64,000 bases of DNA from Candidatus Thorarchaeota archaeon (GCA_048882485.1 JBHLRP010000001.1:32001-96000); one strand, 5' to 3'; positions 4,111-27,797 are shown, counted from the stretch's first letter. The notes: a model not told the origin generated them from the letters alone. Program-made: numbers and translations.

Positions 4111-4186
4111 CTATTATAGGGAAATTTATGAACTAGGTTACTAATTGTATCCTACGTCGGCATTCTAGTGCTTTGAAGGTTTCAGA

Positions 4187-4819: not shown

Positions 4820-4837
4820 ATGCTTGTAGTATCAGTT

Positions 4838-5218: not shown

Positions 5219-5224
5219 CGATTC

Positions 5225-6284: not shown

Positions 6285-6354
6285 TTCTTCACGTCCCTTG
6301 CTCGGCCGGTTCGAAGAAACAACTCAATATGAACATTATGATTGGAGTTCTTTT

Positions 6355-7077: not shown

Positions 7078-7087
7078 CTCATTCACC

Positions 7088-7762: not shown

Positions 7763-7834
7763 TTGAAATGCCTCACACAGGTCATTGTGGGAGCACCCAA
7801 CCCTTTTTTTAGTTTGACGGATGCGCCGTAGGGC

Positions 7835-9037: not shown

Positions 9038-9096
9038 CGCCGCATCATAGATATGGATTTCTTATGGATGGCATACCATTCATTCGCACGTTTATC

Positions 9097-10167: not shown

Positions 10168-10333
10168 ATCTCCGGCTGGAGGCGGACAAACTTCAGATAC
10201 GCGATGGGAAAATGCAATCCTTAAACCTTTCGAGATACGCTATTAATACCAGCAAGAAAAGCTTGATGAAGAATGTTGACGTTTCGTCACTTACCATGAA
10301 TAAATCATGCTCAAACTCCTCTTTAGAGAGTGT

Positions 10334-10351
10334 GGTTGCTAATTAGCAACC
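10334..10351. promoter_or_regulatory. Perfect 18-bp palindrome, candidate transcription-factor site
   Basis: GGTTGCTAATTAGCAACC, intergenic between the two prenyl synthase genes. Confidence 0.5.
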
Positions 10352-10434
10352 TAACAGGTCAAAGCGCTTCATGTGGACTTATCTAATATGAAAAGAGAAA
10401 CGGACTCAAAGAGAATCTCTCAGAATGTTGAGAG

Positions 10435-11307
10435 TCACCTCCTGCCATCAATAATATAATCGGCAAACCACATTAACAATTCTGGCTTCGTAAATTCCCC
10501 TTTCACAATCGCTGCTTTTGCGTTGGCGATATGTATCTCCAATTCATTGTGGTTGTCCAAAGAGATTTGATTGCTCAACTGCACGGCAAGATTCAATCGC
10601 TTCACATATTGAATAAGCGGTTTTGCTTGTGCATCAGTTGCACCAGCTAGCTTTGCTCCTATTAATGCAGATTCGTACAATAAGGATGTTGGCTTCGAAT
10701 AATCGCCTGGAGAATCTTCAGATTCACTCTGTGCTCTGGAATTCAGGCTGAGTATTTTCAAGGCTTCGCCTTCACATGTCCGGATTGCACCTATACCAAG
10801 TATCTGCAGCAATTCTGGCTCTCCTAGTTCACCGATGATTCGAATTGCTAATGCAAGTAAAAGGTCTCCCGCCAAGAGTGTGATTTTATCTCCGTAGACT
10901 CTTCGATTCTGGTTAATACACTTTTGCGTGTTGCCAATCATGTTATTATGGATGAGATTTGCGGCATTCATGAATTCAATCGCAGCTGCAATAGGTAGTG
11001 AATATCCTATATCGCCTCCAATAGCTTGGTGACATAATAAGGTCAACACACCCCTAATTGGTGCGCCTTTTGCATTCATTACTTGAAGCGCTGCGTTGTA
11101 TAAGAATTGATTACGATCACTATTTGTTTGAAGTTGCTTTTGTATCTCTTGGATTGTCAAAGAAAAGAGAGAATCCAACTCAATGGCCTGTAGAAAATCT
11201 TCCCCCTGATCACTATCTCCTCCAGAACTGCGAATCCAAGGGCCATTCCCATCAGAATGCTTTCCTCCTTGTATGGAGGAGTAGTCATCCGCCATTAAAT
11301 CCACCAA
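10435..11307 (-). CDS. Catalytically degenerate (aspartate-less) polyprenyl synthase paralog
   Basis: Aligns with the neighbour (LAGDLLLALAIRIIG, CEG), but FARM reads LIHNNMIG and SARM reads VQLSNQISLD. Confidence 0.8.
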   Translation of the reverse strand: MVDLMADDYSSIQGGKHSDGNGPWIRSSGGDSDQGEDFLQAIELDSLFSLTIQEIQKQLQTNSDRNQFLYNAALQVMNAKGAPIRGVLTLLCHQAIGGDIGYSLPIAAAIEFMNAANLIHNNMIGNTQKCINQNRRVYGDKITLLAGDLLLALAIRIIGELGEPELLQILGIGAIRTCEGEALKILSLNSRAQSESEDSPGDYSKPTSLLYESALIGAKLAGATDAQAKPLIQYVKRLNLAVQLSNQISLDNHNELEIHIANAKAAIVKGEFTKPELLMWFADYIIDGRR

Positions 11308-12548: not shown

Positions 12549-13766
12549 TTAAGACAACTCCATTAGGTCGATGAACAGGTCTTCTATATTCACGACGTTA
12601 ATATCGACGTCCCTCTTTTTAACAGCATCCAGGAAGTTCAACTTACAGAATACGCATGCTGATACAAGCGTGGTTGCACCTGCATCTAGCGCTTCTCTTC
12701 CGCGTCGAGCCGCCATATTCATTGCCTCTTCACCAAATCCCGCCTTGAATCCGCCTCCTGCACCGCAGCATTTTGAGTTGTTTCCAAAGCGATCCATCTC
12801 GACCAATTTCAATCCGGGAATGCTCCTGAGGATTTCCCTTGGTTCTTCGAAAATACCTACGTGCCTTCCCAAATGGCATGGGTCATGATAGGCAACCGTT
12901 TCATTAAATCCCTTTTTCCACTTCAGTTCTCCTGTCTTGACCTTGCCAGCTAGAAATTGGGTGAGGTGTTGAGTTGTGAATGGAAGAATAGCACCACGCA
13001 CACGATAGAAACTTGGCCAATCAAGCGTAACTGTGCGATAACATCCTGAGCAAGAGAAAATGACATGCTTTATGCCTCTGCTTTCCATCCTCTCGATATT
13101 ATGGCCTACGACTCGTTCAACATCAAGCTCGCCAATATATTGGGTTGTGCCGTCTTCTTCCTCTTCATAGACTTTCCTTCTTACTTGTCCTGTTCTTAGG
13201 AGTGGACTGGTGCAGCAATATTCATCAGCTCCAAGCACCTGCGGCTCAATGGAGAAGTAGTTTAGCATTTTCAATGTTGCTTGGGCAATTTCCGGACGTC
13301 TGTATGAGGCCGTGCACCCAACATAGTATGCCCACTCAGAGTCATCTGAAACACGACCATCCTCAGGAATCCAATCTGCTCGTGTTTCAGGACGTTCGCC
13401 AAAGACATTATTGTATTTGAGGACCATGTCACCCATGTGTGCCTGTCGACCGTAGGGTCCAATACCAAGGTCCACCAGCTTATGTCGAACATCCTCGATG
13501 ATTTGAACATAAGGCAACTTGATGGGGCATCTTTCCACGCACTGTTGACATGTTGTGCAAGCATGAACAACTCTCATGAACTCTTCATCTATCTCCAAAT
13601 TTCTCTCCACATATGAACGGAGAAGTCTAAGCCTACCCCCAGCAAACATGGCTTCAGTCCCAAACTCCTCATAGCTCGTGCAGGTCCATCTGCAAGTGGA
13701 GCAATTGCTGCAAAGCACAATCTTGTCCGGATCGAAATCGAATTCCTTGGTGAATAATCGTCTCAT
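12549..13766 (-). CDS. HdrD/GlpC-like Fe-S protein (2x[4Fe-4S] plus two CCG domains), copy 1
   Basis: CSNCSTCRWTC, CTTCQQCVERCP; GC..CCT..CSGC; HDPC..CCG..CVFC. Confidence 0.9.
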   Translation of the reverse strand: MRRLFTKEFDFDPDKIVLCSNCSTCRWTCTSYEEFGTEAMFAGGRLRLLRSYVERNLEIDEEFMRVVHACTTCQQCVERCPIKLPYVQIIEDVRHKLVDLGIGPYGRQAHMGDMVLKYNNVFGERPETRADWIPEDGRVSDDSEWAYYVGCTASYRRPEIAQATLKMLNYFSIEPQVLGADEYCCTSPLLRTGQVRRKVYEEEEDGTTQYIGELDVERVVGHNIERMESRGIKHVIFSCSGCYRTVTLDWPSFYRVRGAILPFTTQHLTQFLAGKVKTGELKWKKGFNETVAYHDPCHLGRHVGIFEEPREILRSIPGLKLVEMDRFGNNSKCCGAGGGFKAGFGEEAMNMAARRGREALDAGATTLVSACVFCKLNFLDAVKKRDVDINVVNIEDLFIDLMELS

Positions 13767-15256
13767 TGCTTCTTCTCCTCCATCTTTCTGGCTGGTACTT
13801 CCAGTATTCTTCTCGCTATTCGGAATATAGCTTGCAGTCGCCGAAGATATCCATTCAACGTAAACATGATATTCATTCTAAGGTATGTCATGTTGGAGTG
13901 TGTGAGCTTGTCCGGATTCATTATGTCATAAGGATCCCAATGACTCCTGATTTCTTGGAAACTCTGATAAAGCTCCGGTTCGAACTTCTTCAAGTATACA
14001 GTATTTTGGAGACCCAATGTATAGAGCACGCCTCCCTGTTTGTATGACAATTTCGTCAGTCGATGGAGCATCGACTTTCCTGACATGAAGTGCATCCAAT
14101 GCCTATGATCAGAAGGCGCAAAGACACACAGTCGTACCAGATTGTCATGTCCCAGAACTAGATAGAAGCAGGAGTTTATGCGGTATCTCCTGCCGATGTC
14201 ATACATCTTCTCAACTACAGGGACGGCATCATCAACGTCAATCCAATAGTTCTGCATAGAAAGGGTTGGGACCTCCAGCTTCAGCTTCATTTCCACGATA
14301 AATCTGTCTTCCCAGCTTCTGTCATAGAATTTCTTTGGTAGGATTTCACCATTGCCTTCATCCACGATGTTTTGAGCCTCGACAAGCGCATTTTCAACTT
14401 CGGACGTTGAGCCTTCATATGTCACAACAATATAGTATTTGCCCTTGATGTTGGCTGGCAAGCCTCCCTGTATCCGCCACTCATATTCCGGATCTGCAAG
14501 TCGCAAATAGAATGGTTTTGCTTCTGATTCTGCGAGAGTCTTTACAGCAGCAAGAGACTCACTCACACTGTTAAATCCTGCCATCAACCCGTCAGTAGCC
14601 TCGGGAATCAGCCTAATCTTGAGTTTCATCGATGTCACAAGACCGGCAATTCCAGCCGTCCCGAAGAAGATTTTCATATCCTCTCCGCTGATTGTTTCTA
14701 ATTCGCCATTTGGCCTAATGACTGTGAGCTCCACCAAATTATCCAGCATCGATCCATACTTGGGAGTTCCAATACCAGCCTTGCCTCCTATTGCCAGCCA
14801 GCCGGCTAGAGTTGAAGCTATTCCACTCTGAGGCCACACGCGTAATGCATACCCATGCTTGGCCAATTTGCGGTCCGTCACTTCCCAAACTGATCCAGCC
14901 TGCACGTGGACCCACTCCTCTTCAGGATTTACCTCAATGATTTCAGCTAGCCTTTTCGTATCGATTATGATTCCTCCTCTTGTAGGGCTTCCAGAACCAA
15001 AATAGCAAGTGCCGCCACCTCTTGGTACTACGGGAATTCTATGTTTGAAAGCGTATTTGAGAATGGCAGATACCTCCTCCTCAGAAGTAGGCCATGCTAC
15101 ATAATCAGCCAACCACTTTTTCTTCCATCGGTAATGGTAATAGGGAATTCCAGTCGTATCACCGCTAGCAGAGAGTCTCTCCGTCACGCTGGAGCTTATC
15201 CATGAGAGTTCCGAAATGTCCTTTGCTTGTTCCAAATCTTGTACTGCGTTCTCCAT
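13763..15256 (-). CDS. FAD-linked oxidoreductase (VAO/PCMH, GlcD/Dld-like), copy 1
   Basis: VVPRGGGT, STLAGWL, GTPKYG, GTAGIAGLVT, DPYDIMNPDK; start ATG 15256. Confidence 0.88.
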   Translation of the reverse strand: MENAVQDLEQAKDISELSWISSSVTERLSASGDTTGIPYYHYRWKKKWLADYVAWPTSEEEVSAILKYAFKHRIPVVPRGGGTCYFGSGSPTRGGIIIDTKRLAEIIEVNPEEEWVHVQAGSVWEVTDRKLAKHGYALRVWPQSGIASTLAGWLAIGGKAGIGTPKYGSMLDNLVELTVIRPNGELETISGEDMKIFFGTAGIAGLVTSMKLKIRLIPEATDGLMAGFNSVSESLAAVKTLAESEAKPFYLRLADPEYEWRIQGGLPANIKGKYYIVVTYEGSTSEVENALVEAQNIVDEGNGEILPKKFYDRSWEDRFIVEMKLKLEVPTLSMQNYWIDVDDAVPVVEKMYDIGRRYRINSCFYLVLGHDNLVRLCVFAPSDHRHWMHFMSGKSMLHRLTKLSYKQGGVLYTLGLQNTVYLKKFEPELYQSFQEIRSHWDPYDIMNPDKLTHSNMTYLRMNIMFTLNGYLRRLQAIFRIARRILEVPARKMEEKKQ

Positions 15257-15266
15257 CACATTCGCC

Positions 15267-15680
15267 TCACAAAAGGAACTGAATATACCCCATAAGAAAT
15301 ACAGTTGTCCAGCAACCAAGAGCCACTAACCCAGGTATTTTTGTGCGAACACCTGAGATTCCGGTAATGAATGCACCAATGCCAAATGCATATCCTACTG
15401 CACCAATGATGATGTGTAGCAAGTGGAACAGGTCAATTGTGGGCAGGGCAAGAATAACACCTGTTGTCGGGAGTATGGTAACAATATTGATTGTAGTCAA
15501 CAGCAGTGAGAGACCTGCCAAAACTCCATGAGTAAAAGTGTACTTCTCCTTTGATAGTTGATACAATCCTGTTGCCAAAGCCAGAAGTATTATTGCAGGC
15601 AATCCCAGATAAATCGTCATATGCCAATCTGGCATTTCTTGTAGTGGATTAAACCAGTACGCTTTCGATCCCAAGGTCAT
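15267..15680 (-). CDS. 4-TM His-containing membrane protein (putative cytochrome b)
   Basis: DWH, THG and HLLH His residues in or near TMs; homologous to the C-terminus of 31743-32939; RBS agaaggaga. Confidence 0.6.
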   Translation of the reverse strand: MTLGSKAYWFNPLQEMPDWHMTIYLGLPAIILLALATGLYQLSKEKYTFTHGVLAGLSLLLTTINIVTILPTTGVILALPTIDLFHLLHIIIGAVGYAFGIGAFITGISGVRTKIPGLVALGCWTTVFLMGYIQFLL

Positions 15681-15925: not shown

Positions 15926-16849
15926 GTGGGGTCCGACGAACGAATTGAGAAGAATCGGACCGCGGTTGAGAAGCTCATGCGAACCCAAGATCTGAAGAAA
16001 ACCATCCTCTATCTATTTGGCCGTCGCAGATTTTATGGATATGAAGCACACAAAGAGCTCGAGGAAAATGGTATCAGGATTGGAATTGGTAGACTCTACG
16101 GCATTCTTGGCGAGATGTTGATTGAAGGACTATTGTTAGACGAATGGAAGCGGAGTCAATCTGGGCCCAGGAAGAGAGTCTACTGGCTATCTGACCGGGG
16201 TCACGAGCTTAGGAAACATATCCTATCGGAAGCAATTGAAATCGTGCATAAGTTCTATATTGAATATCTCAACGATTTGCCCTCGGAAATAAGTCCATTC
16301 ATGGAATTGGCTGACTTAATCATGACTTTCCTTCAGGACAAGGGGATCCTGCTCTTTATCGCTCCTGAGTTTACAGCTGCGGTTATGGAGCTTTCTTCTC
16401 TGCTGGCTGAGCGAATTCAAGATGGTAGGCGTTTTTTGGTTCTTCCGGGCAGGACAGTTGGGGATATGGCTGCTAGCGATTGGCAAGTCATAGAGGGCGC
16501 CTACAATAAGATTCCGCTGAAGGCGAGTTCCGTCAATTTCATTCTAGTTGTTGGATATCGCCCTGAGTATTCAGAAAAACGGACTTTACAGGAATGGGTT
16601 CGACTGCTGAGGAAGGATGGGTCTATCGCAATAGTAGCCCCAAGTGTTCTTATCGAAGACAGGGGCTCTCCTATGACAATTGATGCATTCATTGAGAAGC
16701 ATGAGCATGAAACTATGCATCTAACTGTGGATTGGAACGGCTTCAAATCAATGCTAGAAGACGCATTTAAGAGAGTGAAACAGAGGTCGATAGCCAATCT
16801 AACTACCCTACTTGCATCAGGGATAAGAGATGGCATGAAGAGAGCATAA
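15926..16849 (+). CDS. PadR-family regulator fused to a degenerate SAM-methyltransferase-like domain
   Basis: YGYE...GRLYGIL...GPRKRVYWLSDRG; C-terminal IPLKASSVNFI...EWVRLLRKDG. Confidence 0.8.
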   Translation: MGSDERIEKNRTAVEKLMRTQDLKKTILYLFGRRRFYGYEAHKELEENGIRIGIGRLYGILGEMLIEGLLLDEWKRSQSGPRKRVYWLSDRGHELRKHILSEAIEIVHKFYIEYLNDLPSEISPFMELADLIMTFLQDKGILLFIAPEFTAAVMELSSLLAERIQDGRRFLVLPGRTVGDMAASDWQVIEGAYNKIPLKASSVNFILVVGYRPEYSEKRTLQEWVRLLRKDGSIAIVAPSVLIEDRGSPMTIDAFIEKHEHETMHLTVDWNGFKSMLEDAFKRVKQRSIANLTTLLASGIRDGMKRA

Positions 16850-17006
16850 AACTCCATGCTGCATGCTCTCACTATATACATTTTGAAACTATAGCAAAAT
16901 CATGATAGGTGCTTAATAAGATATAGCGGAGGGTTTGATGCGCAAGTCATTATCCTAGCCGCTTCTGAATTGCGTTCGGAATGTGCTGGGAGGAAGAGGA
17001 TGAGCT

Positions 17007-17921
17007 ATGATGAAAGCTAATGAGATTAGAAAGGCTGGGCTAGCTTTGACAATTGCTTTTGTTATTACAATTGTTCTAGCCCACCCAGTCGCTGCTGATG
17101 TGAATCTCACAGCTCCCAAGTATAGTGGAATCGTTGTGGACGGTTTGGCAGACGACTGGGCTGGAGTAGATGGCATAGACCTGACACTCATTCGACCAAT
17201 GGCAAGCAGCGAACGTCTAGAGGATGGACTCACCCTAAAAGTTGCCTATGATGATGCCAACATCTACGTTCTAGCCATGATTCATGACGATTATGATTTC
17301 AATGAAACTGATCCTCATGATTCAGGGTCTTTGGCTGTATTGTTTCAGATTGATGATGCCGCAAGAGTAGACATGGGTGGTGGTCTGGGAAACGTTGACA
17401 TCTGGCATTGGGAGCTCGAAACTCCACCTGGAGTGCCTGCTGGAGGACCTGATTTTGAGAGTGGGAATGATCCTGAAGGCAACTTTGACGACGAATGGGC
17501 TTTTGATGTTGAAGACCGACATGATGATACAATGGCAAATGAGCTCTATGGTGTCTGGTCACATACTGGCAACTTGTCACTCCGCGGTTCGGATGGGACC
17601 TGGATCTTTGAGATGAGAAGGAGCTTGACAACTAGTGACACTATGGACGAAGATGCCCAGTTTTCCGCCGGAGGCACCTTTGGGATGGCAATTGCCTATT
17701 GGGACGCAGACCAAACAGCTACAGGTTGGGAGCACGATGGGCACTATGCAAGTTGTAGGGACCCAGCTACACTTGACTTCTCGTGGATTCAAGTGAGCCT
17801 CGCGGCAGCAGGTGGCGGTGATGGAGCCCTCCTTCCCGCTTATTCAGGGCTGGGGCTTGGTGGTATTGCTCTAGTCATTGCTTTGGTCTCTCTCCTTCGC
17901 CCAAGAAAAGCTGCAGAGTAG
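17007..17921 (+). CDS. Secreted, C-terminally anchored DOMON/EB_dh-type heme-b binding protein
   Basis: Signal peptide, VDGLADDW, KVAYDDANIY, DMGGG, VDIWHW, WIFEMRRSL, GHY; C-terminal TM. Confidence 0.75.
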   Translation: MMKANEIRKAGLALTIAFVITIVLAHPVAADVNLTAPKYSGIVVDGLADDWAGVDGIDLTLIRPMASSERLEDGLTLKVAYDDANIYVLAMIHDDYDFNETDPHDSGSLAVLFQIDDAARVDMGGGLGNVDIWHWELETPPGVPAGGPDFESGNDPEGNFDDEWAFDVEDRHDDTMANELYGVWSHTGNLSLRGSDGTWIFEMRRSLTTSDTMDEDAQFSAGGTFGMAIAYWDADQTATGWEHDGHYASCRDPATLDFSWIQVSLAAAGGGDGALLPAYSGLGLGGIALVIALVSLLRPRKAAE

Positions 17922-17992
17922 AGGATTAAATCCAATCGCACCTCGTATCGTACTCTCTGTATTGATGCGAGGTGTACATTCTATTTGGAGGC

Positions 17993-19894
17993 ATGTTAAT
18001 GATCCAGAAAGTTTCAAGAATAAACAATTCCAAGAGCACTTTACTTCTCTATGGTTTGATCGCCTTTACCGTTATATTGGTCGCATATCCATTAATTGCA
18101 CGTGCGCAAATGGCCGCTCCAACCGATAGAGAAGTAACAATTGTTGCTCATCAATTCGAATTCAATCCCTCTATCATAAGGGTCAACGTTGGCGATAATG
18201 TTACTATTCACCTAAGAGTCGCAGATGTGCCTCATGGCCTTTACATAGATGGGTATGAGCTAAATGTCCATTTCATTCCCCTCGATGATGGACCTAATGA
18301 GGAAACACTGAATTTCATTGCAGACAAACCTGGCGTGTTCAGGTACCGCTGCTCAGTACCATGTGGCAACTTCCATCCATTCATGGTGGGAAAACTCGTG
18401 GTGGAACCAGCGTACGAATTTCCCATTGCATCAATTCTCGCCATACTCTTCTCCGCTGGGATGGTTGGATTTATGTGGCGAAGCAAGCCATCAACTCCGA
18501 AACCACCAAAAAGAATCAATATCCTCGGCAACTCGCTTGTGAGGCGACTTCTGCGCAGCAGATACTTCCAGTTTACAGCTATGTTCATCAGCTCAATTTT
18601 CTTCCTGCTAGTCATACTCACTGGTTTGTTTGGCACACCAGTGGGCAACGAGAATTTCTCGATTATTGTTGTCTGGATCATTTGGTGGGGTGCACTCATG
18701 CTCTTCCTCGTTCCCTTTGGAGGACGACTCTGGTGTACAATATGCCCGTTGCCATCATATGGAGAGTGGGCTCAGAGAGGAGCTTTGACTCAAAAAAGTG
18801 AGTCAAGACATGGGTTACTTCGCAAATGGCCAAAGAGACTCAATAACATCTGGCTTCAGAATTTCGGCTTTCTAAGTATGTCCATGTTCATTGGTGTTTT
18901 CATTACAATCCCGATGGCAACAGCATGGTTGATGATCTTGCTGATAGCTATGCCATTAGTTTTGTCTTTGGTGTTCAAGGATAGGGTGTTCTGCAGATAC
19001 CTATGCCCGGTTTCTGGATTCATCGGACTCTATTCCATGGCTGGTGCTCTCGAACTGCGGGTGAAGGACAGACAGGTTTGTAGGGAACATATCGAGAATG
19101 ACTGTATAAGAGGAAACGAGCGAGGATATCCCTGTCCATGGTTCGAATTCCCTCAGAACCTTGATAGGAATGCATACTGTGGCCTATGCACCGAGTGCAT
19201 CAAAACATGCCCCAAGGACAACGTTGCGGTGAACATAAGGTTTGGTGGAGAGGATTTGGAGATCGAACCATGGGGTGGCAGAAAGAAGCGCGGCCTCGAC
19301 GAGCCCTGGAAAGCGTTCATTATGCTGACGCTATCCTTCCTCTATGGACTTGTGTTCATGGGACCTTATGGCTGGCTTAAGAACATGGCTGGAATGAAAA
19401 CCGTTGGGGAATGGGTGATCTTCGCTGGCTTGGTATGGGGAACGACTCTCTTGGTAACGCCAGCTATATTCTATGCGTTTGCGGCCATATCGAAGAGAGT
19501 GTCTGGAGCCACAGAAATCTCCAGACGAGATGTGTTCAAGAGCTATTCCTATGCATTGGTTCCTCTTGGACTTCTGGCATGGATTGCGTTCAGTGTGGCC
19601 ATCGTGTTGATTAACGGGTCATACTTCATCTCAGTTCTCTCCGATCCCTTTGGATGGGGATGGGATCTTTTTGGAACAACAAGCTATCCATGGACACCAT
19701 ACTTCTCTCTCTTTGTCCCCTATGCACAGATAGTATTGCTGCTGTTGGGACTTGTTTTAGCAATAAGAACGACGTACAAGATATCTATGAGACTATATCC
19801 CAATAGGCAGAGTGCAAGAAGAGGCTCAATTCCAATCATAATCTTCTTCATTCTGTTCACAATGCTGCTCCTGTGGCTCTGGGTGGGGTGGTAG
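17993..19894 (+). CDS. CuA cupredoxin fused to a NapH/NosR/CcoG-type membrane polyferredoxin
   Basis: DVPHG...CSVPCGNFHPFM (CuA ligand set); WCTICP, FCRYLCP, CGLCTECIKTCP; multiple TMs; start after ggagg at 17993. Confidence 0.85.
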   Translation: MLMIQKVSRINNSKSTLLLYGLIAFTVILVAYPLIARAQMAAPTDREVTIVAHQFEFNPSIIRVNVGDNVTIHLRVADVPHGLYIDGYELNVHFIPLDDGPNEETLNFIADKPGVFRYRCSVPCGNFHPFMVGKLVVEPAYEFPIASILAILFSAGMVGFMWRSKPSTPKPPKRINILGNSLVRRLLRSRYFQFTAMFISSIFFLLVILTGLFGTPVGNENFSIIVVWIIWWGALMLFLVPFGGRLWCTICPLPSYGEWAQRGALTQKSESRHGLLRKWPKRLNNIWLQNFGFLSMSMFIGVFITIPMATAWLMILLIAMPLVLSLVFKDRVFCRYLCPVSGFIGLYSMAGALELRVKDRQVCREHIENDCIRGNERGYPCPWFEFPQNLDRNAYCGLCTECIKTCPKDNVAVNIRFGGEDLEIEPWGGRKKRGLDEPWKAFIMLTLSFLYGLVFMGPYGWLKNMAGMKTVGEWVIFAGLVWGTTLLVTPAIFYAFAAISKRVSGATEISRRDVFKSYSYALVPLGLLAWIAFSVAIVLINGSYFISVLSDPFGWGWDLFGTTSYPWTPYFSLFVPYAQIVLLLLGLVLAIRTTYKISMRLYPNRQSARRGSIPIIIFFILFTMLLLWLWVGW

Positions 19895-19898
19895 CATC

Positions 19899-20273
19899 AT
19901 GAAGAAAATAGAAATTCTAGCGCTACTCTTGGTATTATCTGTACCTGTGGGAATGCCAATGAGCGTATTCTTCTATCAGGAAAATATCTTTCGCCAACCT
20001 GGGGTGATACAAGTTGTTGCGCGGCAGTGGGAATTTGAACCTAGTACTATTACTGTGGAATTGGGCAGCACAGTGAGTTTGTTGCTAACAAGTGCTGATG
20101 TTGTTCATAACTTCGTAATCCTCAATTATAGTATTGATGTAACCCTTTACCCCGGGAAATTCACTGAGTTAGAGTTTCAAGCAGACCTGGAAGGACAATT
20201 CGAGATTGACTGCACAATCTTTTGTGGATCTGGACACTATGAGATGAGCGGGTTGCTCATAGTCACGGCCTAG
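19899..20273 (+). CDS. Small CuA cupredoxin (cytochrome c oxidase subunit II-like domain)
   Basis: N-terminal anchor, ARQWEF, SADVVH, CTIFCGSGHYEM. Confidence 0.88.
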   Translation: MKKIEILALLLVLSVPVGMPMSVFFYQENIFRQPGVIQVVARQWEFEPSTITVELGSTVSLLLTSADVVHNFVILNYSIDVTLYPGKFTELEFQADLEGQFEIDCTIFCGSGHYEMSGLLIVTA

Positions 20274-20290
20274 AATGGTAGGCTATACAC

Positions 20291-20353
20291 GGGACCCTCA
20301 GAGCGAGTCGGACCTCCCCCACTCAAGGAAGCGCGAACTCTCTCTGTGGTCCC
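20291..20353. terminator. Long GC-rich hairpin between convergent operons
   Basis: gggacc/ggtccc, cagag/ctctg and gagtcg/cgaactc nested pairings. Confidence 0.45.
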
Positions 20354-20370
20354 ACCCACGCCCTAATATT

Positions 20371-22095
20371 CTAGGAGAATATTCTTCTGAAGAACCTTAG
20401 AAATGGACGACCTATTGATAGAACAGTCGATATCGGTATCACGTTGACAAACTCAACTAACACCTCTCCTACTACAAGCCCCACGGCGCCAGCAAGAAGT
20501 AGGCTAATCTCATCCGTTATAATTAGCCACGGCACGTAGGCTTCCATCAATGTTGGAACAAGTAACCATGCTAGCCATATGAAAACTGGAAACGCAATAG
20601 CCGCGGCAAGCAATATGAGAAGATTGAACCGAATAGACATCACCAATGGTCCAGGAAAGACCTTGTGGGGATTGAGACTTCCTTTGGGATCAGTTGTCCG
20701 TTTGAGCTTCGCCATTTGTCCTAGATACCGCTTTCTAAAGAATGAACGCGAATGCGCGACATTCCACATTCCAATGGAATATGCCCGTCCTCCAGCATTG
20801 ACTCCGATATCAATGAAATCAAGCGATCTGTACCATCCCATAAGAAATGATATCTTGCGACGCTCATCATCCAAGAACCAAGCAAGGACTGCTACCTCTC
20901 CATTCACACTGACTGCGCCCTCAGCCGCCCATTTTTCACGCTTGAAATGCTTTTCGGCTCTATCAAAAAACTCATCCAGACGTTTGATGGGTACGAAAAC
21001 CTCTGAGGGTGCCAGACTTGGCCCAAGCCTTTTAATTCTCATAGGATAGAAGCGCTCATCCCATTCATGTTGGGCAATCTCATCATCCTCGACGATTCCA
21101 TTATGTCGCTTCACGAAATGCCTGAATTTCTCAGCTTCAGCTTCATTTTCCTGTTCGGTTCCCTCGTATGCGCTCAGGACCACCCATTGGCCACTAGTTG
21201 GAGGCGCTTTTTCTAACTCTTCAAGCATTTGATGGAAGCTGTCAGTAATAAAATGCAAATAATATGGGCGAGTGGCCTGAAGAATCTCATTCAAAGCGTC
21301 CAACATGGTTCTTCTGCTTCTGAATGAGGCAACAAGTGGTTTCAATTCTCTTAGAGGTATTAATTTCAGCACCACTTTCGTGATTATGCCTAATGCACCA
21401 TTGCTATCAACAAAGAGAGGAGTCAAGTTATCGAGATCCATTCTTTCTCCATCTGGTGTGTAGTGATAATCATCTGCCCCGAGGTAGTAAGAGTAATCGC
21501 TCTTTGCAGTCTGACCGAGCATTCGTGGAGGTTTTCTGGTCCGTATGATAGTGCCATCAGCAAGTACAACCTCCAAATCTACAACCTGATTCCGAATCCC
21601 GCCGTACTTTGTGCTTCCTATTCCTGTGCCTCCTGCAGCAACCCAACCGCCTACTGTGCTGGAGGGGGCACTTGATGGGTATGCAGTTAAAGTCAGGCCT
21701 TGCTCCTCAAGCCGTTCCAGTAAATTGCCCCAAATGATACCAGCTCCGACTTCAACTGTCATAAGGTCTCTGTCGATATGAAGAATCTCATTCATCCGGG
21801 TCATTTCAACAACAAGGCCGCCTTTTGTTGGAAGGGCGCCACCATAGCCGCTCGTACCATGCCCTCGAGGAACAACTGGTATACCTTGTTCACCACAATA
21901 CTTGAGGAGGTTGGAAACAACCTGAGTGCTCGTCGGTTGCGCAACTGCATCTGCCTCTGTGTTCAAGATGTCCTTGACAAGACCAGGTAGAGCTGCAATG
22001 TCGTGAGAATATAGCTTCCTCATATACTCCTCCGATGAAAAGAAGTCTTCACCAACAATATCTGCAAGTTCCTGTAGCTGCTTTTTTCTCAGCAT
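20371..22095 (-). CDS. FAD-linked oxidoreductase, copy 2, with C-terminal TM anchor
   Basis: VVPRGHGTSGYGG, YPSSAPSSTVGGWV, SNGALGIITK, WDERFYP, DPKGSLNPHK, 2 C-terminal TMs. Confidence 0.88.
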   Translation of the reverse strand: MLRKKQLQELADIVGEDFFSSEEYMRKLYSHDIAALPGLVKDILNTEADAVAQPTSTQVVSNLLKYCGEQGIPVVPRGHGTSGYGGALPTKGGLVVEMTRMNEILHIDRDLMTVEVGAGIIWGNLLERLEEQGLTLTAYPSSAPSSTVGGWVAAGGTGIGSTKYGGIRNQVVDLEVVLADGTIIRTRKPPRMLGQTAKSDYSYYLGADDYHYTPDGERMDLDNLTPLFVDSNGALGIITKVVLKLIPLRELKPLVASFRSRRTMLDALNEILQATRPYYLHFITDSFHQMLEELEKAPPTSGQWVVLSAYEGTEQENEAEAEKFRHFVKRHNGIVEDDEIAQHEWDERFYPMRIKRLGPSLAPSEVFVPIKRLDEFFDRAEKHFKREKWAAEGAVSVNGEVAVLAWFLDDERRKISFLMGWYRSLDFIDIGVNAGGRAYSIGMWNVAHSRSFFRKRYLGQMAKLKRTTDPKGSLNPHKVFPGPLVMSIRFNLLILLAAAIAFPVFIWLAWLLVPTLMEAYVPWLIITDEISLLLAGAVGLVVGEVLVEFVNVIPISTVLSIGRPFLRFFRRIFS

Positions 22096-22106
22096 AGTAT
22101 CACTCT

Positions 22107-23294
22107 CTATAGTTTCAATGCTTCAGCAACAATCTGTGAAAGATCCTTGAATTTGATATCAGAGGACCTGTGTTCAATTCCGTCATGGAATGACATAGTG
22201 CATGATGGACACTCACTCGAGAGAATTTCTGCACCAGTTGCTTCCGCCATTTCAACGCGTCGTGCGGAGATGCGTACTGACATGAGCGCTTCGGTGCCCT
22301 TCAGCAAGCCACCACCCCCGCAGCACCGGGCCTTATTCTTCGTGTACTTCATTTCTTTGAGTGTCAAGCCAGGTATCGATTTCAAGACCTCTCTAGCTGG
22401 CTCATAGATATTCTGATGACGCCCCAGCTCGCATGGGTCATGCCAGACAACTTCGTGAGGATATGTGTGTGGAAATGTGAGTTTACCTTCCTGTATCATA
22501 CGCAATACAAATTGCGAATAAGTCAGGAATTCCATCCCTGCAGTGGCCTCGCGACCCAAAAGGTGTGGATATTCCTCCGAAAAGGAACGATGGCATCCTG
22601 GACAATTGAAGACGACCGTGCTCACTCCAAGACGCTTCAGCACTGAGAGATTATGTTCAGCTAACCTTCCACCTCTCTCAAAGTCCCCGGCTACAAAGTA
22701 AGGATTTCCGCAGCAGAACTCATCTTCACCCATCAAGGTGTAATTAATTCCGAGGCGCTCGAAGAGCTTGACTGTGTTTTCGCCTATGTGAGCTAGTGTT
22801 CCCTTAAAAGAAATATTGCATCCCGCGAAGTAAGCGACGCTCGCCTCCCTCTGGAATCTATTCTCAACAAGATCATCGACCATGTCCGTCCAGAGTATTC
22901 GGTCGACTTGATCTATGTCCATTATATTGTCACTATTCTGGATTGATTTATCAAGATATTTCACTATTTCAGGCCATTCGCCCAATTCGGATACTTCGCC
23001 TCGTATAAGCTGCCAGAATCGCAACAGCGGAATATTAGTTTGACAAATCTCTTGACAGGCACCACAAAGAGTACACTGAAAGATTCGACTTGCAAAATCA
23101 GGTGGGATTGGCTTCCCTTTCTTGATAAGATCTCTCAATTGGTAGAGTTTTCCTCTCGGGGACAATGAGTCCCAAAGAGTATCAAGGTAAGTTGGGCAAA
23201 CAAACGTGCAAAAGCCGCATCTCGCGCAGATTGTTGGCTCAACATCCAGTTGTTCTGCCTTGAGAGACTCAAACCTCTTTGTTCCCATTATCAA
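22107..23294 (-). CDS. HdrD-like CCG/Fe-S protein, copy 2
   Basis: CARCGFCTFVCP, CTLCGACQEIC; GC, CCG, CPGC; HDPC, CCGGG, CPSC. Confidence 0.9.
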   Translation of the reverse strand: MIMGTKRFESLKAEQLDVEPTICARCGFCTFVCPTYLDTLWDSLSPRGKLYQLRDLIKKGKPIPPDFASRIFQCTLCGACQEICQTNIPLLRFWQLIRGEVSELGEWPEIVKYLDKSIQNSDNIMDIDQVDRILWTDMVDDLVENRFQREASVAYFAGCNISFKGTLAHIGENTVKLFERLGINYTLMGEDEFCCGNPYFVAGDFERGGRLAEHNLSVLKRLGVSTVVFNCPGCHRSFSEEYPHLLGREATAGMEFLTYSQFVLRMIQEGKLTFPHTYPHEVVWHDPCELGRHQNIYEPAREVLKSIPGLTLKEMKYTKNKARCCGGGGLLKGTEALMSVRISARRVEMAEATGAEILSSECPSCTMSFHDGIEHRSSDIKFKDLSQIVAEALKL

Positions 23295-23300
23295 TCACCT

Positions 23301-23798
23301 TTAGGGCCATGGCATTCCTAGCCAATCTAGGAATGGTGACAATATTGATGTGCCGTAAACTGCAATTCCTCCCATCGCTCCGATGAGGACCACAAGAAGG
23401 CCGCCCCAGATTGTGAGAAAACCGTAGCTAATGAAGCTAGACCGAATCAGCCAGACTCTATCGCCAAGTTTCGCCCTCAGCAGAACAAGGAAAGCGAAGA
23501 CTTCCATGGCAACAGTTGACCACAGAATCTTGTACCTCATGTATTTATTCAATACCAGTGCTTCCATGGGCCAATCCATGAAGCCAGTCACAGCACCTGC
23601 ACCTAGTCCCAGAAGTCCAATGATATTGCCCCAATAGATATAGGCGTCGAATTCATGGAACAGTCTAGCAAGTCTAGTACCAGGTGTCTGAATCGAATCT
23701 CTATAAGCAATCCTCAGAAACATGTTCACTATTGACAAGGCCACTGTAGTTGTTAGAATGCCCGTGTGGAAATGAACGAATACAGGATGAATAGCCAT
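23301..23798 (-). CDS. DUF2231-like 4-TM membrane protein
   Basis: N-terminal IHPVFVHF, AVTG, terminal GAMGGIAVYG typical of this family. Confidence 0.6.
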   Translation of the reverse strand: MAIHPVFVHFHTGILTTTVALSIVNMFLRIAYRDSIQTPGTRLARLFHEFDAYIYWGNIIGLLGLGAGAVTGFMDWPMEALVLNKYMRYKILWSTVAMEVFAFLVLLRAKLGDRVWLIRSSFISYGFLTIWGGLLVVLIGAMGGIAVYGTSILSPFLDWLGMPWP

Positions 23799-23805
23799 TT
23801 TTAGA

Positions 23806-24435
23806 TCACCTATTTGGCAAACGCCTCATTACTATCACCCAGATGATTGCCATTCCAATAGCAAAACCTGGCACGATAATGGAGAAGAGATTCCACCAAG
23901 TTTCGATCAGTACCTGTTCAGGGTCTGTGGTTGGAGTGGATGGCGTTGTGGGTATCGTAGTGGTGGTAGAGTTTGTTCCAGTATCCCTTGGATGCACCTC
24001 AACTGGTACATCAAGGCTTGTCGAATAGAGGCCCGTTGATGCAGCCCATATTCGAATCGTAAAGTTCCCGGATCTTCGCCCAGTGAAGTCAACGGCAAAT
24101 GATATCTCTCCAACATTGCCATTCGTATCGGTCCCGTCATCATCTTCTACGAGTTCAATTGCGTATATGAACTGTGTATTATCAGCCCACCCACTTCTAA
24201 TGCTAATTGCACCGACACCATTATCTGCATCCAAAAGCAAAGTAAAGGAATCTCCAACAGTTGTGTTCACTGTTTCTGTGGCATTGGATGTCAATCCTAT
24301 AACGCCAGTGTTTGTATGGCATAGACCGCATTCTTCCGTATTGTTTGGGAACGCGATTGCGCTGGAAGCGGCACCAAACGTAATTGCAATCATAAGCATA
24401 ATAGCAGAAATCTTCAGGAGAGGTTTCTTTTTCAC
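23806..24435 (-). CDS. Secreted, membrane-anchored monoheme c-type cytochrome (no stalk repeats)
   Basis: GTG start with RBS ggagtg; signal peptide; CGLCH (24316-24330); Thr/Pro linker; C-terminal TM. Confidence 0.75.
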   Translation of the reverse strand: MKKKPLLKISAIMLMIAITFGAASSAIAFPNNTEECGLCHTNTGVIGLTSNATETVNTTVGDSFTLLLDADNGVGAISIRSGWADNTQFIYAIELVEDDDGTDTNGNVGEISFAVDFTGRRSGNFTIRIWAASTGLYSTSLDVPVEVHPRDTGTNSTTTTIPTTPSTPTTDPEQVLIETWWNLFSIIVPGFAIGMAIIWVIVMRRLPNR

Positions 24436-24786
24436 AGTGGCACTCCCTTTATTACATTGATATCGGGGATGATTCATTTGTTGCTGAGGGGGTATTCCCT
24501 CTGGTTTCGTTGGGGAACTTATTGACCAGTATTTTAGCGTATCGCTACAAACCACCGTCAACTACCGTCGAAAGTATTACATGGTGTATATAATCCTTCT
24601 TGACGAGTTACATGCCGTTACCTTGGAATTATTAATATTCGCTAGATTCTTTGAATTGGTAATCAAACTGGATTCCTTTTCTTCGGAATGGAATCTTGTT
24701 GAATCTCGTTTCTTTTTTCACGATTCATGCTATAATTGGCATATGTTCTAATTATGGCGGAAGTTTCGATTCGATATGTTTCTCAT

Positions 24787-26493
24787 TTACCTATTCAGAA
24801 GCTTATCGAGGAATCTCAGCAAGGGAATTCCCATTGCTAGTGCTTGGTTCAGGGTCATCATCTTTATGACCAGTAGGCCTGCCACTCCGCCAAGAAGTGA
24901 TAGCATCCAAATCAGCTGAATAGCTAGAAATGACACTGGATATGATGATAATACATCAATAACCCAAGTGAGCCCAAGAAGGCCGGGCCCATAGGAGATT
25001 AAACCGAAAGTGAGAGCAAACCCCAAGACAAAACCAAAGATTTGCGAGTGCCAAGCTGCTCGTGCTCTTCCACCAAAGACCTTCAGAGGGTTTAGCATAC
25101 CTTTTGGATCCACCTCCTTCTTCAGGAGTTTCAGACTTTCCATTTTCTCCTCGCCATAGAATTCCTTTGCATGCCTGGTGTTCCAGAGTGCAACAGCGTA
25201 AGGACGACCCTCATGTCTTCTAGCCAATGCTGCTATGTCAAAAGATTTGTGCCAACCTATCGTATATCTGAGCTTCTTCCTCTCATCGTCCAGTATCCAT
25301 ACTAGATATGAGGCTGCTCCATCAGCTCCAATTGTTCCCTCAACTGCGAATTTGGAGCTGCCTAATCGACTCAATGTATCACGATGAAGGCCAGGGAGAT
25401 TATCCACGGAAGTTGTGACCTCAGCTGGGACGAGACTTGGGCCTTGCCTCTTGAATCGCAAAGGGTACAGACGTTCGTCCCAATAAAACTCTGCACGCTT
25501 CTCATTCAGCATTGAACCACTATTCTCTTCCACAAACTTCTCAATCGCTTCCATTCCCTCGTCATTATCAAAAATCGTCCCATGTAAAGCTCCAGATAAA
25601 ATGAACTTGTTCCATTCCATAGGAAAACCAATCAAGGCTGTCAGTTTGGAAGTATGGTTGCTGTCAAGATATCGAAGATGATATGGCACTGCACTATCAA
25701 TCATCAGCTGGGTTGCTGCGGAGAGGGCTTCCATTGATTCAAAAGAACAAGCAAATGGACGTAATTGTAGTTTGGGCACAGTCCGAAGAGTAACCTTTGT
25801 GATGATTCCAAACGTTCCATAAGTTCCTGAAAGCACTTCATTCAATCTGAGATTGCTAGCCAACTTTCCTTTGAGCCACTCTGTCCCCTCATTTGCTTCT
25901 TCCTTCTGATTATCAATATGTGGACCTAAAATCAAGTTTCCAACCCTTACCAATTTGCCATTAGCTAGGACTGCTTCAATACCCACAACCTGGTCGCCTA
26001 TCTCACCATGTTTTGCTGAACCAATACCAAGGCCACCGCTTGCTACAAAGCCCCCAACTGTCGCGGCAGTTGCACTCGAAGGGTAGATGGGTAGAGTTGT
26101 TCCCATGCGTTCAAGAATCATCAGCAATTCCCGCCATGTTATGCCAGCTTCAACAGTGACAGTGCAGGCATAGTCATCGAGATGAACTATCTGATTCATC
26201 TGGGTCAAACTCACGCAGAGTCCCTTTCTCACTGGAATTGCTCCTCCCCAGCCAGACGTTCCATTCCCTCTTGGGACAATAGGCATGTCATTCTCTTTTG
26301 CATATCTCATGAGATTCTGAAGAGATTCGACGGTAATTGGCTGGGCTACTACGTCGAACTGATTGTCAATTATCTGACTAGCTAATGCTGGAAGGTTGGC
26401 AGCATCCTCAGAGTATATGCGACAAGTTTCCTCGTCTGCAGTAATGTTGTCTGCACCAACAATATCCTCAAGTTCTTGTGGAATTGTTCTCAA
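24787..26493 (-). CDS. FAD-linked oxidoreductase, copy 3, with C-terminal TM anchor
   Basis: IVPRGNGTSGWGG, YPSSATAATVGG, GTYGTFGIITK, WDERLYP, DPKGMLNPLK, 2 C-terminal TMs. Confidence 0.88.
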   Translation of the reverse strand: MRTIPQELEDIVGADNITADEETCRIYSEDAANLPALASQIIDNQFDVVAQPITVESLQNLMRYAKENDMPIVPRGNGTSGWGGAIPVRKGLCVSLTQMNQIVHLDDYACTVTVEAGITWRELLMILERMGTTLPIYPSSATAATVGGFVASGGLGIGSAKHGEIGDQVVGIEAVLANGKLVRVGNLILGPHIDNQKEEANEGTEWLKGKLASNLRLNEVLSGTYGTFGIITKVTLRTVPKLQLRPFACSFESMEALSAATQLMIDSAVPYHLRYLDSNHTSKLTALIGFPMEWNKFILSGALHGTIFDNDEGMEAIEKFVEENSGSMLNEKRAEFYWDERLYPLRFKRQGPSLVPAEVTTSVDNLPGLHRDTLSRLGSSKFAVEGTIGADGAASYLVWILDDERKKLRYTIGWHKSFDIAALARRHEGRPYAVALWNTRHAKEFYGEEKMESLKLLKKEVDPKGMLNPLKVFGGRARAAWHSQIFGFVLGFALTFGLISYGPGLLGLTWVIDVLSSYPVSFLAIQLIWMLSLLGGVAGLLVIKMMTLNQALAMGIPLLRFLDKLLNR

Positions 26494-27692
26494 TCTATTT
26501 TCTCACCCCCCTCACTTTTTGAACTCAGTGAGTTTGCCACAAGCTGCGCTATATCAAGTATCTCAATACTATAGCCTAGAGTTATCGTTGCTAAATCAAA
26601 TGCCATCTCGCAACGAGGACATTCTGTGACCAGCAGTGATGCAGGTGTGACTGATGCATCTCTCAGACGCATTTCAGCAATCTGTGCAGAAAGGTGAGGA
26701 TCAATCATGTTAAGGAGTGCATGTGAACCACAACACCTTGTATCCTCCTCTGAAGAAACCATTTCCACCCTGTAGACACCAGGAATCCTCTCTATTACAT
26801 TGCGGGGTTCTTTGGCCACTCCAAGAACCCTAGCTGATATGCAAGGGTCATGATACGTGGCTGTAATCATTGGCTGTTCCTCAAAGGTCAGGCGCCCTTT
26901 TTGGATAAGCTGGTTGATGAACTGCGAAGCTGTAAGAAGTTCCATCTTCCTTGCAGCTGATGTTCCGGCGCTTTTATGCATTGAACTAATCCATGTGCTG
27001 GCGCAAGACGGACAACTAAACACAACCTTCCTCACTCCAAGGTCAGCTAATGCTTGAGCATTCATCTCGACCATTGTTGGCGTTCCTTCAGGCTCGCCTG
27101 CCCACAATAAAGGAGCTCCACAGCAAGCCTCATCGTTTCCGAGGAGGGTATAGTTAACACTCGCATGTTCCATAATTCTAATCATGGACCTAGCAACACC
27201 ATGCAGTTGATGTTTGAGAGATACATTGCACCCTAGAAAGAAAGCAGTTTCGGCCTTTGCTTTGATTCTTGGCCTAATGATGTCTTCCATGCCCTCCGTC
27301 CAGAGAAGTCGGCTTGAACGACCAATCGAGAAGGGGTCTCCCATTTTCTTGACAGATTCACTTGCAAATTCAACTGGAGCGGGAGTGAGGTTTCTTACCA
27401 TGGCTTCCTCTCGCATTAGCTCCCAAAATCGATCGAGTCTGATGCTAGTTGTGCATACACTCGTACAATGCTCGCAAAGTGTGCATAGATAGAGTTTCCT
27501 TGTAAAATCTCGATTAAATTCCGACTCTCCTTGATAGATAGACTTCGTTATACTAAGTTTACCTCTTGGGCCGTAGGGCTCCCATCTCATCTGCCGGAAG
27601 ACAGGACATACAAGTGTGCAGTTGCCACAGGATGCACAAACATATGGGTCATTCTTCTGACCGCTTTGATCTATCGGTCCTGGTTTAGTCAT
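26490..27692 (-). CDS. HdrD-like CCG/Fe-S protein, copy 3
   Basis: CASCGNCTLVCP, CTLCEHCTSVC; LGC, CCG, CPSC; HDPC, CCG, CPRC; start ATG 27692. Confidence 0.9.
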   Translation of the reverse strand: MTKPGPIDQSGQKNDPYVCASCGNCTLVCPVFRQMRWEPYGPRGKLSITKSIYQGESEFNRDFTRKLYLCTLCEHCTSVCTTSIRLDRFWELMREEAMVRNLTPAPVEFASESVKKMGDPFSIGRSSRLLWTEGMEDIIRPRIKAKAETAFFLGCNVSLKHQLHGVARSMIRIMEHASVNYTLLGNDEACCGAPLLWAGEPEGTPTMVEMNAQALADLGVRKVVFSCPSCASTWISSMHKSAGTSAARKMELLTASQFINQLIQKGRLTFEEQPMITATYHDPCISARVLGVAKEPRNVIERIPGVYRVEMVSSEEDTRCCGSHALLNMIDPHLSAQIAEMRLRDASVTPASLLVTECPRCEMAFDLATITLGYSIEILDIAQLVANSLSSKSEGGEKID

Positions 27693-27797
27693 TCCAAAAG
27701 ACTCTCGATATTTCCGCCTTAAGACTGTTCGGCTAATAGCCAAAAATGAAATGACGCCGGAGTACCAATATAATACTCCGGAATCACTAAGCAATTA

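Follow-up and report, generated by a model that had tools for sequence, protein, structure and literature searches.

The closest described counterparts of the genes considered here belong to the nar operon of Methanoperedens, which in two genomes encodes NarG, NarH, NarJ, a pseudoperiplasmic b-type cytochrome (Orf7), a protein like subunit II of haem-copper oxidases (HCO II-like), a NapH-like protein and a second HCO II-like protein (PMC4683180). The HCO II-like proteins have one helix and the NapH-like protein has nine, described as "five additional"; the accessory genes MPEBLZ_02038-02041 are all highly transcribed, and an unusual nitrate-reducing membrane complex was proposed (Arshad et al. 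2015, PMC4683180). We studied a set of genes of similar build in a Candidatus Thorarchaeota archaeon, within a 64,000-nucleotide stretch of DNA (GCA_048882485.1 JBHLRP010000001.1:32001-96000) that we call the window. Three co-oriented genes, with a PadR-type regulator gene (P0004) upstream, encode an EB_dh/DOMON-like protein that probably carries haem b (P0001), a membrane polyferredoxin fused to a CuA-type cupredoxin (P0002) and a small CuA-type protein (P0003). On balance, we favour the view that these four genes encode a self-contained membrane electron-transfer module, which would act as an outward conduit.

Compared by architecture only, the Methanoperedens set and that of the window share a b-cytochrome, a CuA protein, a nine-helix NapH-like protein and a second CuA protein, in the same order and with the genes co-oriented. 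They differ in that the first CuA protein and the polyferredoxin of the window form a single polypeptide (the family includes both split and fused versions), in that a PadR gene rather than narG-narH-narJ lies upstream, with no narGHJ found in the operon or the genome, and in the host, which is a Thor-type Asgard archaeon. The module is therefore not categorically new, its set of parts being already in print (PMC4683180); a literature search found no paper characterising any member of the family. What is new is a fused, reductase-less copy in the Thorarchaeota, sister to an archaeal clade linked to NosZ, together with a predicted face-to-face CuA complex and a subfamily with an NAD(P)H flavoprotein in the putatively cytoplasmic iron-sulphur (Fe-S) loop. 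In the textbook view, only two enzymes receive electrons through a CuA site, and the initial annotation of this locus had likewise taken CuA normally to serve haem-copper oxidases or nitrous oxide (N2O) reductase. That picture is outdated, given the CuA/NapH-like/CuA set in the Methanoperedens nar operon (PMC4683180) and a large family (hundreds of 50%-identity clusters, from Chloroflexota, several archaeal phyla and others) that appears to use CuA as the outward head of a NosR-like Fe-S protein. The features of the locus are as follows; residue numbering of P0002 runs from the GTG at 17972.

15926..16849, plus strand: PadR-type regulator (P0004; PF03551, 3e-11), with a C-terminal domain of about 200 amino acids without known family
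17007..17921, plus strand: P0001, exported EB_dh/DOMON-like protein (PF09459), anchored in the membrane by its C terminus and probably carrying haem b
17937..17976, plus strand: short inverted repeat, from reading of the sequence, in the 77-nucleotide spacer ahead of the likely start of the fusion gene
17972..19894, plus strand: P0002, CuA cupredoxin-polyferredoxin fusion, 640 amino acids from GTG (likelier start ATG 17999)
18107..18415, plus strand: CuA cupredoxin domain of P0002, predicted to face outward, residues 46-148 (H88 at 18233-18235; CuA loop C127-M138 at 18350-18385)
18416..19891, plus strand: membrane polyferredoxin of P0002, residues 149-640, one linker helix plus nine helices in the model
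18974..19306, plus strand: ferredoxin-like loop of P0002, predicted to be cytoplasmic, residues 335-445, with two 4Fe-4S-type motifs
19899..20273, plus strand: P0003, single-helix-anchored CuA protein, 124 amino acids (H70 at 20106-20108; CuA loop at 20211-20246)

Both cupredoxins have a complete set of CuA ligands, H88...C127-x3-C131-G-x2-H135-x2-M138 in P0002 and H70...C105-x3-C109-G-x2-H113-x2-M116 in P0003, whose cupredoxin comprises residues 35-124. P0003 scores well above the cut-off of the COX2 model PF00116 (36.1 bits against 22), and P0002 falls under it (13.2 bits). A profile of 19 P0002 homologues matched the CuA domain of Thermus ba3 oxidase in the PDB (E 7e-20), followed by the CuA domains of NosZ (7e-15 to about 1e-14), and structure comparison with VIA aligned the P0002 cupredoxin with subunit II of haem-copper oxidases (Z 13). 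The CuA ligands of P0002 are invariant or almost so among the 19 homologues. In a survey of 80 loci from other genomes, C-x3-C-G-x2-H-P-F-M is kept in all 21 fused heads and in 44 of 48 separate upstream cupredoxins, and the downstream cupredoxin partner has C-x3-C-x3-H-x2-M in 37 of 55 cases, with loop variants among the others. P0002 and P0003 are the only open reading frames with a CuA motif in the whole genome. The initial annotation had read two complete ligand sets here, one of them fused to a NapH/NosR-like membrane Fe-S protein; both readings are confirmed, and the open reading frames lie where it had placed them. The closest solved relatives of both cupredoxins are thus subunit II of Thermus ba3 oxidase and the CuA domain of NosZ, and P0003 shares the one-helix anchor; in contrast to those enzymes, no subunit I or CuZ propeller was found in the genome.

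The AF2 model of P0002 (pLDDT 81, pTM 0.84) has a linker helix at residues 149-170 and then nine helices. Its Fe-S motifs are C255xxC258P, C341xxxC345P, C370xxH373x4C378...C388P and C403xxC406xxC409xxxC413P, so that the ferredoxin-like loop has one classic CxxCxxCxxxCP motif and one C-x2-H-x4-C...CP motif. The cysteine pattern is invariant in the 19 homologues, as is an outer loop, SDPFGWGW (558-564). The inner loops have 7, 7 and 17 lysines plus arginines; each outer loop has 0-2. Because of this positive-inside charge count and the helices of the model, all of the Fe-S motifs are placed in the cytoplasm, and the cupredoxin and the SDPFGWGW loop outside. The membrane part matches Fer4_5 (PF12801, 6.9e-8), and among named families NapH is the best membrane match, far under its cut-offs (TIGR02163, 32.4 bits, E 6e-8, cut-off 213; NF007013, 25.9, cut-off 234); the NosR model NF046105 gives 16 bits against a cut-off of 1000. 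A Pfam search returned no FMN_bind match to P0002, the head being a cupredoxin, and there was no CcoG model among the NCBIfam matches at E <= 0.1. When the 640-residue model was searched as a whole with Foldseek and VIA, the matches listed were all to cupredoxins, and neither these searches nor the PDB profile search listed a solved relative of the membrane part. In the ESM Atlas, the membrane fold (P0002 residues 170-640) occurs fused to Caa3_CtaG in Planctomycetota, and to sigma-54 activators and cyclic nucleotide monophosphate (cNMP)-binding domains in Cyanobacteriota and Thermodesulfobacteriota.

This build resembles two kinds of known membrane Fe-S protein. NapH, of the NapGH quinol dehydrogenase, shares the Fer4_5 motifs and the cytoplasmic 4Fe-4S motifs, whereas P0002 has 9-10 helices rather than 4 and a periplasmic partner that would be copper-based rather than Fe-S; NapG and NapAB do not accompany it, although no search aimed at NapG was made. 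NosR, from clade I nos clusters, and RdhC/PceC have an outward redox head, CX3CP-type membrane motifs and a cytoplasmic two-cluster ferredoxin loop, and relatives of P0002 take their place beside nosZ (L005, L010, L007) and rdhA (L021, L024, L028, L036). P0002 differs from them in that its head is a CuA cupredoxin and not an FMN_bind domain, and in having five further helices and the invariant SDPFGWGW loop.

The likely side of electron entry is indicated by relatives in which a GltD-like NAD(P)H Fe-S flavoprotein of about 470 amino acids is inserted in-frame at the equivalent of P0002 residues 376/377 (P0007, P0250, P0264, P0265, P0281 and P0386). The six carriers are representatives of separate 50%-identity clusters, and their inserts are 42-49% identical to one another. 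A GltD-like flavoprotein is also encoded beside the polyferredoxin gene in four loci (L009, L058, L080 and L083). The inserts place the ferredoxin loop in the cytoplasm and argue for exchange with soluble donors. Together with the predicted cytoplasmic position of the Fe-S motifs, they make a cytoplasmic donor at least as likely as quinol. Of the quinol-to-outside branch in the initial annotation, the outward position of the copper and haem parts is retained, and quinol becomes one of two candidate donors.

P0002 and P0003 are predicted to form a complex with their CuA sites face to face. Prediction from alignments gave an ipSAE of 0.69 (0.69-0.70 in three runs), a value reached by 58 of 80 solved complexes and by 2 of 110 mismatched pairs; the best of three controls gave 0.00. 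The runs share at least 90% of contacts, and the pLDDT of the partner is at least 84. In the modelled complex, the P0003 helix packs on P0002 residues 198-227 (transmembrane helix 2, TM2), and P0003 segments 64-69, 82-88 and 106-111 lie against P0002 segments 83-87, 102-106 and 129-132. These segments flank H70 and C105-C109 in P0003 and H88 and C127-C131 in P0002, and residues 560-563 of the invariant outer loop of P0002 also contact P0003. If the model is true, the two copper centres would be in direct electron-transfer contact. This predicted CuA pair, like the relatives that have an NAD(P)H flavoprotein built in, offers concrete constructs for biochemistry.

P0001 (304 amino acids) matches EB_dh, PF09459, at 48.7 bits (cut-off 33.3, E 1.3e-12). 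Its C terminus, made up of a helix (279-297) and a basic tail, marks it as membrane-anchored; collagen-like stalks precede a matching C-terminal anchor in its homologues. The closest solved folds to its AF2 model (pLDDT 86) are EbdC (2ivf_C, E 4e-10, TM 0.74) and NxrC, then CBM9 modules. EbdC, the top match, is the haem-b gamma subunit of ethylbenzene dehydrogenase, and its axial haem ligands are a methionine and a lysine. In the homologues of P0001, M123, H134, H186 and H246 are invariant and no lysine is; in a profile alignment M123 falls on the methionine of the "RMG" motif of NxrC, and H246 or H186 may replace the lysine. Binding of haem b with Met/His ligation is plausible from these residues. 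The initial annotation had called P0001 an anchored heme-b DOMON protein; the anchor and the EB_dh/DOMON-like fold stand, and the haem is suggested by the fold and by M123. Fold and Pfam score also liken P0001 to the EB_dh-type gamma subunits of type II dimethyl sulphoxide (DMSO) reductases. It reaches 23 against the cut-off of 170 of the curated model TIGR03477, and alpha or beta molybdoenzyme genes of the type II kind were found neither in the window nor in the genome. We rejected the assignment of P0001 as a molybdoenzyme gamma subunit in this genome, in which no NarG-type or type II alpha subunit was found.

EB_dh proteins accompany CuA proteins in several Asgard lineages, which supports the assignment of P0001 as a putative redox partner of the copper pair. 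In the Asgard genome G397, an operon encodes a 116-amino acid protein, the fusion, a CuA protein, an EB_dh protein (PF09459, 1e-25) and a four-haem cytochrome c; a PadR gene (L130:9701-10573) points away from this operon in the divergent orientation. In another Candidatus Thorarchaeota locus (L004), an EB_dh gene of another subtype lies 3.8 kb upstream of the fusion. In G071, an Asgard genome of another family, two EB_dh genes of the P0001 type flank a LanC-like/GH76-like gene and lie within 2-5 kb after coxB-coxA-coxC (L133, G071:C17:42000-60000, 1548-10623). This recurrent linkage of PadR and EB_dh genes in Asgards is new. A phmmer search with P0001 across the 80 loci found no EB_dh protein, a limit of sensitivity, since other EB_dh queries found that of L004. 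In the Chloroflexota, a cytochrome c domain fused to the second cupredoxin may fill the role of P0001. The Thorarchaeote genome has a second PadR gene (311 amino acids, 39% identical to P0004) with a divergent EB_dh protein on contig 43, outside the window (G000:C43:15423-17893); this EB_dh protein, of 374 amino acids, has a Thr/Pro-rich stalk and a C-terminal anchor.

The mechanism that we favour starts from the parts themselves: P0002 has a NosR/RdhC-like build with a CuA head replacing the FMN head and five additional helices at the C-terminal end, P0003 is predicted to sit by its single helix on TM2 of P0002 with the copper loops facing, and P0001 is an anchored b-cytochrome-like EB_dh protein, comparable in kind to Orf7, a subunit of archaeal nitrate reductases. 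Electrons would enter inside, from menaquinol or from an Fe-S/flavin donor in the cytoplasm. Candidate donors would be the dehydrogenase pairs on either side of the operon, of flavin adenine dinucleotide (FAD) oxidase and CCG type, and there are menaquinone genes in the surrounding island. On the way out, electrons would pass from CuA to CuA to haem b and on to an acceptor of high potential beyond the membrane. The acceptor in relatives would be a neighbouring reductase, namely NosZ, NarGH (Methanoperedens) or a reductive dehalogenase; the Thorarchaeote would have acquired the module without such a reductase. Our preference for outward flow has two grounds, the NAD(P)H-flavoprotein inserts and the relatives linked to NosZ, Nar and reductive dehalogenases, in which the flow has to run that way. 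With the module, the respiratory island of this Asgard archaeon, otherwise taken for an anaerobe, would gain a high-potential component; this bears on the diversity of Asgard energy metabolism.

We searched for a catalytic partner in the whole genome (G000; 3.96 Mb in 157 contigs, 90.5% complete, 5.8% contamination). No COX1 (PF00115) match was found, with positive controls in nine genomes, and the only COX2 match is P0003. Matches to NosZ of clades I, II and III are confined to the two CuA domains; TIGR04246, with which NosZ was searched, and NF052460 match only at model positions of about 480-578, the CuA domain, and not in the CuZ beta-propeller. Neither cytochrome bd nor NirK was found in the genome. 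Its two molybdoenzymes are of Fdh-alpha and NuoG/FdhA types, with a best narG score of 83 bits against a cut-off of 1084, and the former has no export signal by eye. The initial annotation's observation that subunit I, nosZ and nirK are absent from the window thus extends to the genome. It had also pointed out that a cognate subunit I or nosZ elsewhere would explain the locus as a split known system, and neither was found in this genome, in G371 (same genus, 92% complete) or in G397 (a distant Asgard, 91%). Since 40 of 49 carrier genomes from other phyla hold a COX1-family gene, the orphan state is particular to these Asgards and is not a trait of the family; in these Asgards it is real, so far as incomplete genomes allow.

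Two proteins are weakly indicated as acceptors. One is a cytochrome c of 488 amino acids with six CxxCH motifs, the only open reading frame of the genome with more than two (G000:C1:30087-31553, L135:8088-9554), which lies about 0.5-2 kb before the window start, adjoins ccm genes and has a c552/NrfA-like C-terminal part (PF02335, 1e-15). We rejected it as a true NrfA, for which the model gives 30 bits against a cut-off of 595. The other is the sole multicopper protein of the genome (644 amino acids; Cu-oxidase_2, 74 bits; best named models PhsA/CueO; G000:C111:1585-3519, minus strand, L138), whose 5.5-kb contig is of uncertain membership in this genome.

The module could also be a complete terminal branch in itself, in which the copper wire and a surface b-haem would carry electrons from menaquinol or the FAD/CCG dehydrogenases to an acceptor of high potential outside the cell. 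We regard this as possible but not likely; it would mean copper-based extracellular electron transfer in archaeal relatives of eukaryotes. That the paired CuA sites would themselves form a catalytic centre, a sub-case of this reading, seems very improbable.

The neighbourhood survey that the initial annotation had suggested, in which all open reading frames of the 80 loci were clustered, revealed a conserved core with variable NosZ, reductive dehalogenase and copper-related neighbours. The constant core is a cupredoxin, fused or separate upstream, the polyferredoxin and a second cupredoxin. This second cupredoxin is a protein of its own in archaea, and most Chloroflexota have it joined to a cytochrome c domain. 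A clade II NosZ (732 bits) with NosD/NosL is encoded divergently beside the module in L005, L010 and L078 (Caldarchaeum-type); NosZ also adjoins it in L007, and Pyrohabitans is the other genus with a NosZ-adjacent copy. A true reductive dehalogenase (255 bits) lies beside it in L021, L024, L028 and L036 (Anaerolineales and one Bacillota genome). In these loci, the CuA-polyferredoxin gene directly follows the dehalogenase gene, with a NapC/NirT cytochrome and a further cupredoxin, and in L036 the set is duplicated in tandem. The Chloroflexota loci include genes for a PCYCGC/CYCXC protein (30), DUF1573 (22), a copper P-type ATPase (15) and a multicopper oxidase (8), and two-component regulators also neighbour most Chloroflexota copies. 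An FTR1 permease adjoins 4 of the 80 loci.

The family is large; our genome scan confirmed 533 loci, mainly in Chloroflexota. Relatives of P0002 number at least 1970 in 90% clusters, and 299, 1768 and 5209 among 50% library representatives at E <= 1e-30, 1e-10 and 1e-3, respectively. Other carriers are found in Caldarchaeales, Geothermarchaeota, Geoarchaeota, Ferroglobus, Thermoplasmata, Thor-/Promethearchaeota, Bacillota, Acidobacteriota and others. A quick maximum-likelihood tree built on the polyferredoxin part (72 rows) joins the copy of the window and L004, which are 60% identical, in a clade (SH-aLRT 99) that is sister (SH-aLRT 99) to an archaeal clade with the NosZ-adjacent copies. The Ferroglobus, Geoarchaeota and Scotarchaeum members (L008, L032 and L073) have NosZ at another place in their genomes. 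In L004, as in the window, the fusion and the small CuA gene lie between FAD-oxidase/CCG pairs. Among 400 Asgard genomes, the family is present in 15; within the genus of the Thorarchaeote 1 of the 16 other genomes has it, and within its taxonomic family 1 of 85. P0001-type proteins are present in 12 of the 400 and in none of the 85. Owing to this patchy distribution, the Thorarchaeote module looks acquired, without its reductase. One further genome, G218, was set aside as a carrier: its locus is Chloroflexota-like and lies on a contig of 5 kb, and the genome shows 7% contamination. Of 401 genomes sampled from the phylum of the Ferroglobus genome G401, 16 carry the family and 6 of the 16 have NarG; there was no case of NarG adjacent to the family in this sample, in which Methanoperedens is probably unrepresented, and no Methanoperedens names were among the family cluster members returned.

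These neighbourhoods bear on whether the Thorarchaeote genes are simply the donor module of an ordinary nitrate reductase, N2O reductase or oxidase that is missing from a metagenome-assembled genome. The nearest clade is NosZ-linked, a matching set accompanies NarGH in Methanoperedens (PMC4683180), most other carriers have a COX1-family gene and the genome is 90.5% complete, all of which would fit. Against it, no COX1, NosZ, NarG or cytochrome bd was found in this genome, G371 and G397 also gave no COX1 or NosZ, and both Thor loci occupy a matching place in the chromosome, flanked by FAD/CCG genes and without a reductase in the vicinity. We consider a missing reductase unlikely. The Thor-type copy suggests instead that the module can persist without the enzymes that accompany its relatives, and it offers a clean setting in which to study the function of the module alone and the direction in which electrons move through it.

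Inward flow is in our view rather doubtful. Here an extracellular donor, which might be Fe(II), Cu(I), a partner cell or reduced humics, would supply electrons that reach a membrane or cytoplasmic Fe-S pool by way of haem b and both CuA sites. In oxidases, CuA is the electron entry point and takes electrons from haem proteins, and the P0001-type EB_dh genes of the Asgard G071 (L133) lie 2 kb from coxBAC. The printed precedent is the transfer from the cupredoxin FtrB to the polyferredoxin FtrD (PMC11966278), and the FTR1 permease genes beside 4 of the 80 loci are in line with it. The ferrous-iron transporter FtrABCD resembles the module in its pairing of a cupredoxin in the periplasm with a polyferredoxin in the membrane (PMC11966278), and FtrB is a structural match to the P0002 cupredoxin (8vuk, Z 12.0). 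The FtrB site, however, is mononuclear and not of the CuA type, and no FTR1 permease or P19 was found among the window neighbours, nor any Cyc2 near the window. Transfer from a potential in the CuA range to 4Fe-4S clusters or menaquinone would also be uphill unless coupled to energy, and the relatives linked to NosZ and to reductive dehalogenases require the opposite direction.

It is improbable that the module is a copper-handling device, whether a cupric reductase, a cuprous oxidase or a CcoG-like metallation factor. The PCYCGC/CYCXC, DUF1573, copper ATPase and multicopper oxidase genes of the Chloroflexota loci, the NosL and NosD copper-assembly genes that adjoin archaeal copies and the fusion of the membrane fold to Caa3_CtaG in Planctomycetota could all be taken in its favour. 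These copper genes are equally well explained as supply for two CuA sites, however, and both cupredoxins keep the full buried-type CuA ligand set that is typical of pure electron carriers; near the window there is no copper gene, and there was no match to a CcoG model. A redox sensor that would report the outer redox state to the PadR regulator is very unlikely, since, although the membrane module of about 470 amino acids is fused elsewhere to sigma-54 activators and cNMP-binding domains and two Asgard lineages have a linked PadR gene, P0002 is without an output domain, a chain of two CuA sites and a haem is excessive for sensing, and PadR linkage is ordinary for regulated operons.

Several observations weigh against the outward conduit that we favour. 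No histidine pairs or other cofactor ligands are conserved within the membrane core of the 19 homologues, so a direct wire from Fe-S to CuA is not evident; a bound quinone bridging the inner Fe-S and the outer copper is a possibility. The occupancy of the copper, Fe-S and haem sites is, throughout the family, deduced from sequence. The potential of CuA is about +0.24 V in known proteins and would also suit electron uptake, so that the direction of flow is a deduction as well. The fusions to sigma-54 activators and CtaG allow sensing or copper-handling roles, and most Chloroflexota loci lie amid copper-homeostasis genes and not reductases. The stand-alone PadR and EB_dh pair on contig 43 indicates that the adjacency of P0001 could be partly incidental. 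Finally, the absence of partner enzymes is that of a genome that is 90.5% complete, with 5.8% contamination.

The gene arrangement is not an assembly join, since contigs from three public sediment runs, which may be the source samples of the genome, cover 16539-21500 without a break. At window position 19834, the third base of P0002 codon 621, the window has A and all four public runs have C. The intergenic gaps from P0004 through P0001 and P0002 to P0003 are 157, 50 (77 to the likelier start) and 4 nucleotides. The true start of P0002 is likely the ATG at 17999, favoured by a GGAGG 7 nucleotides upstream and by the 631-amino acid form of the gene caller (P0005). The inverted repeat at 17937-17976 has no T-run. 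The operon is embedded in repeated pairs of FAD-oxidase (GlcD-like) and CCG/HdrD-like genes, at 12549-15680 and 20371-27794 of the window, and the same kind of embedding surrounds the Thorarchaeota relative L004.

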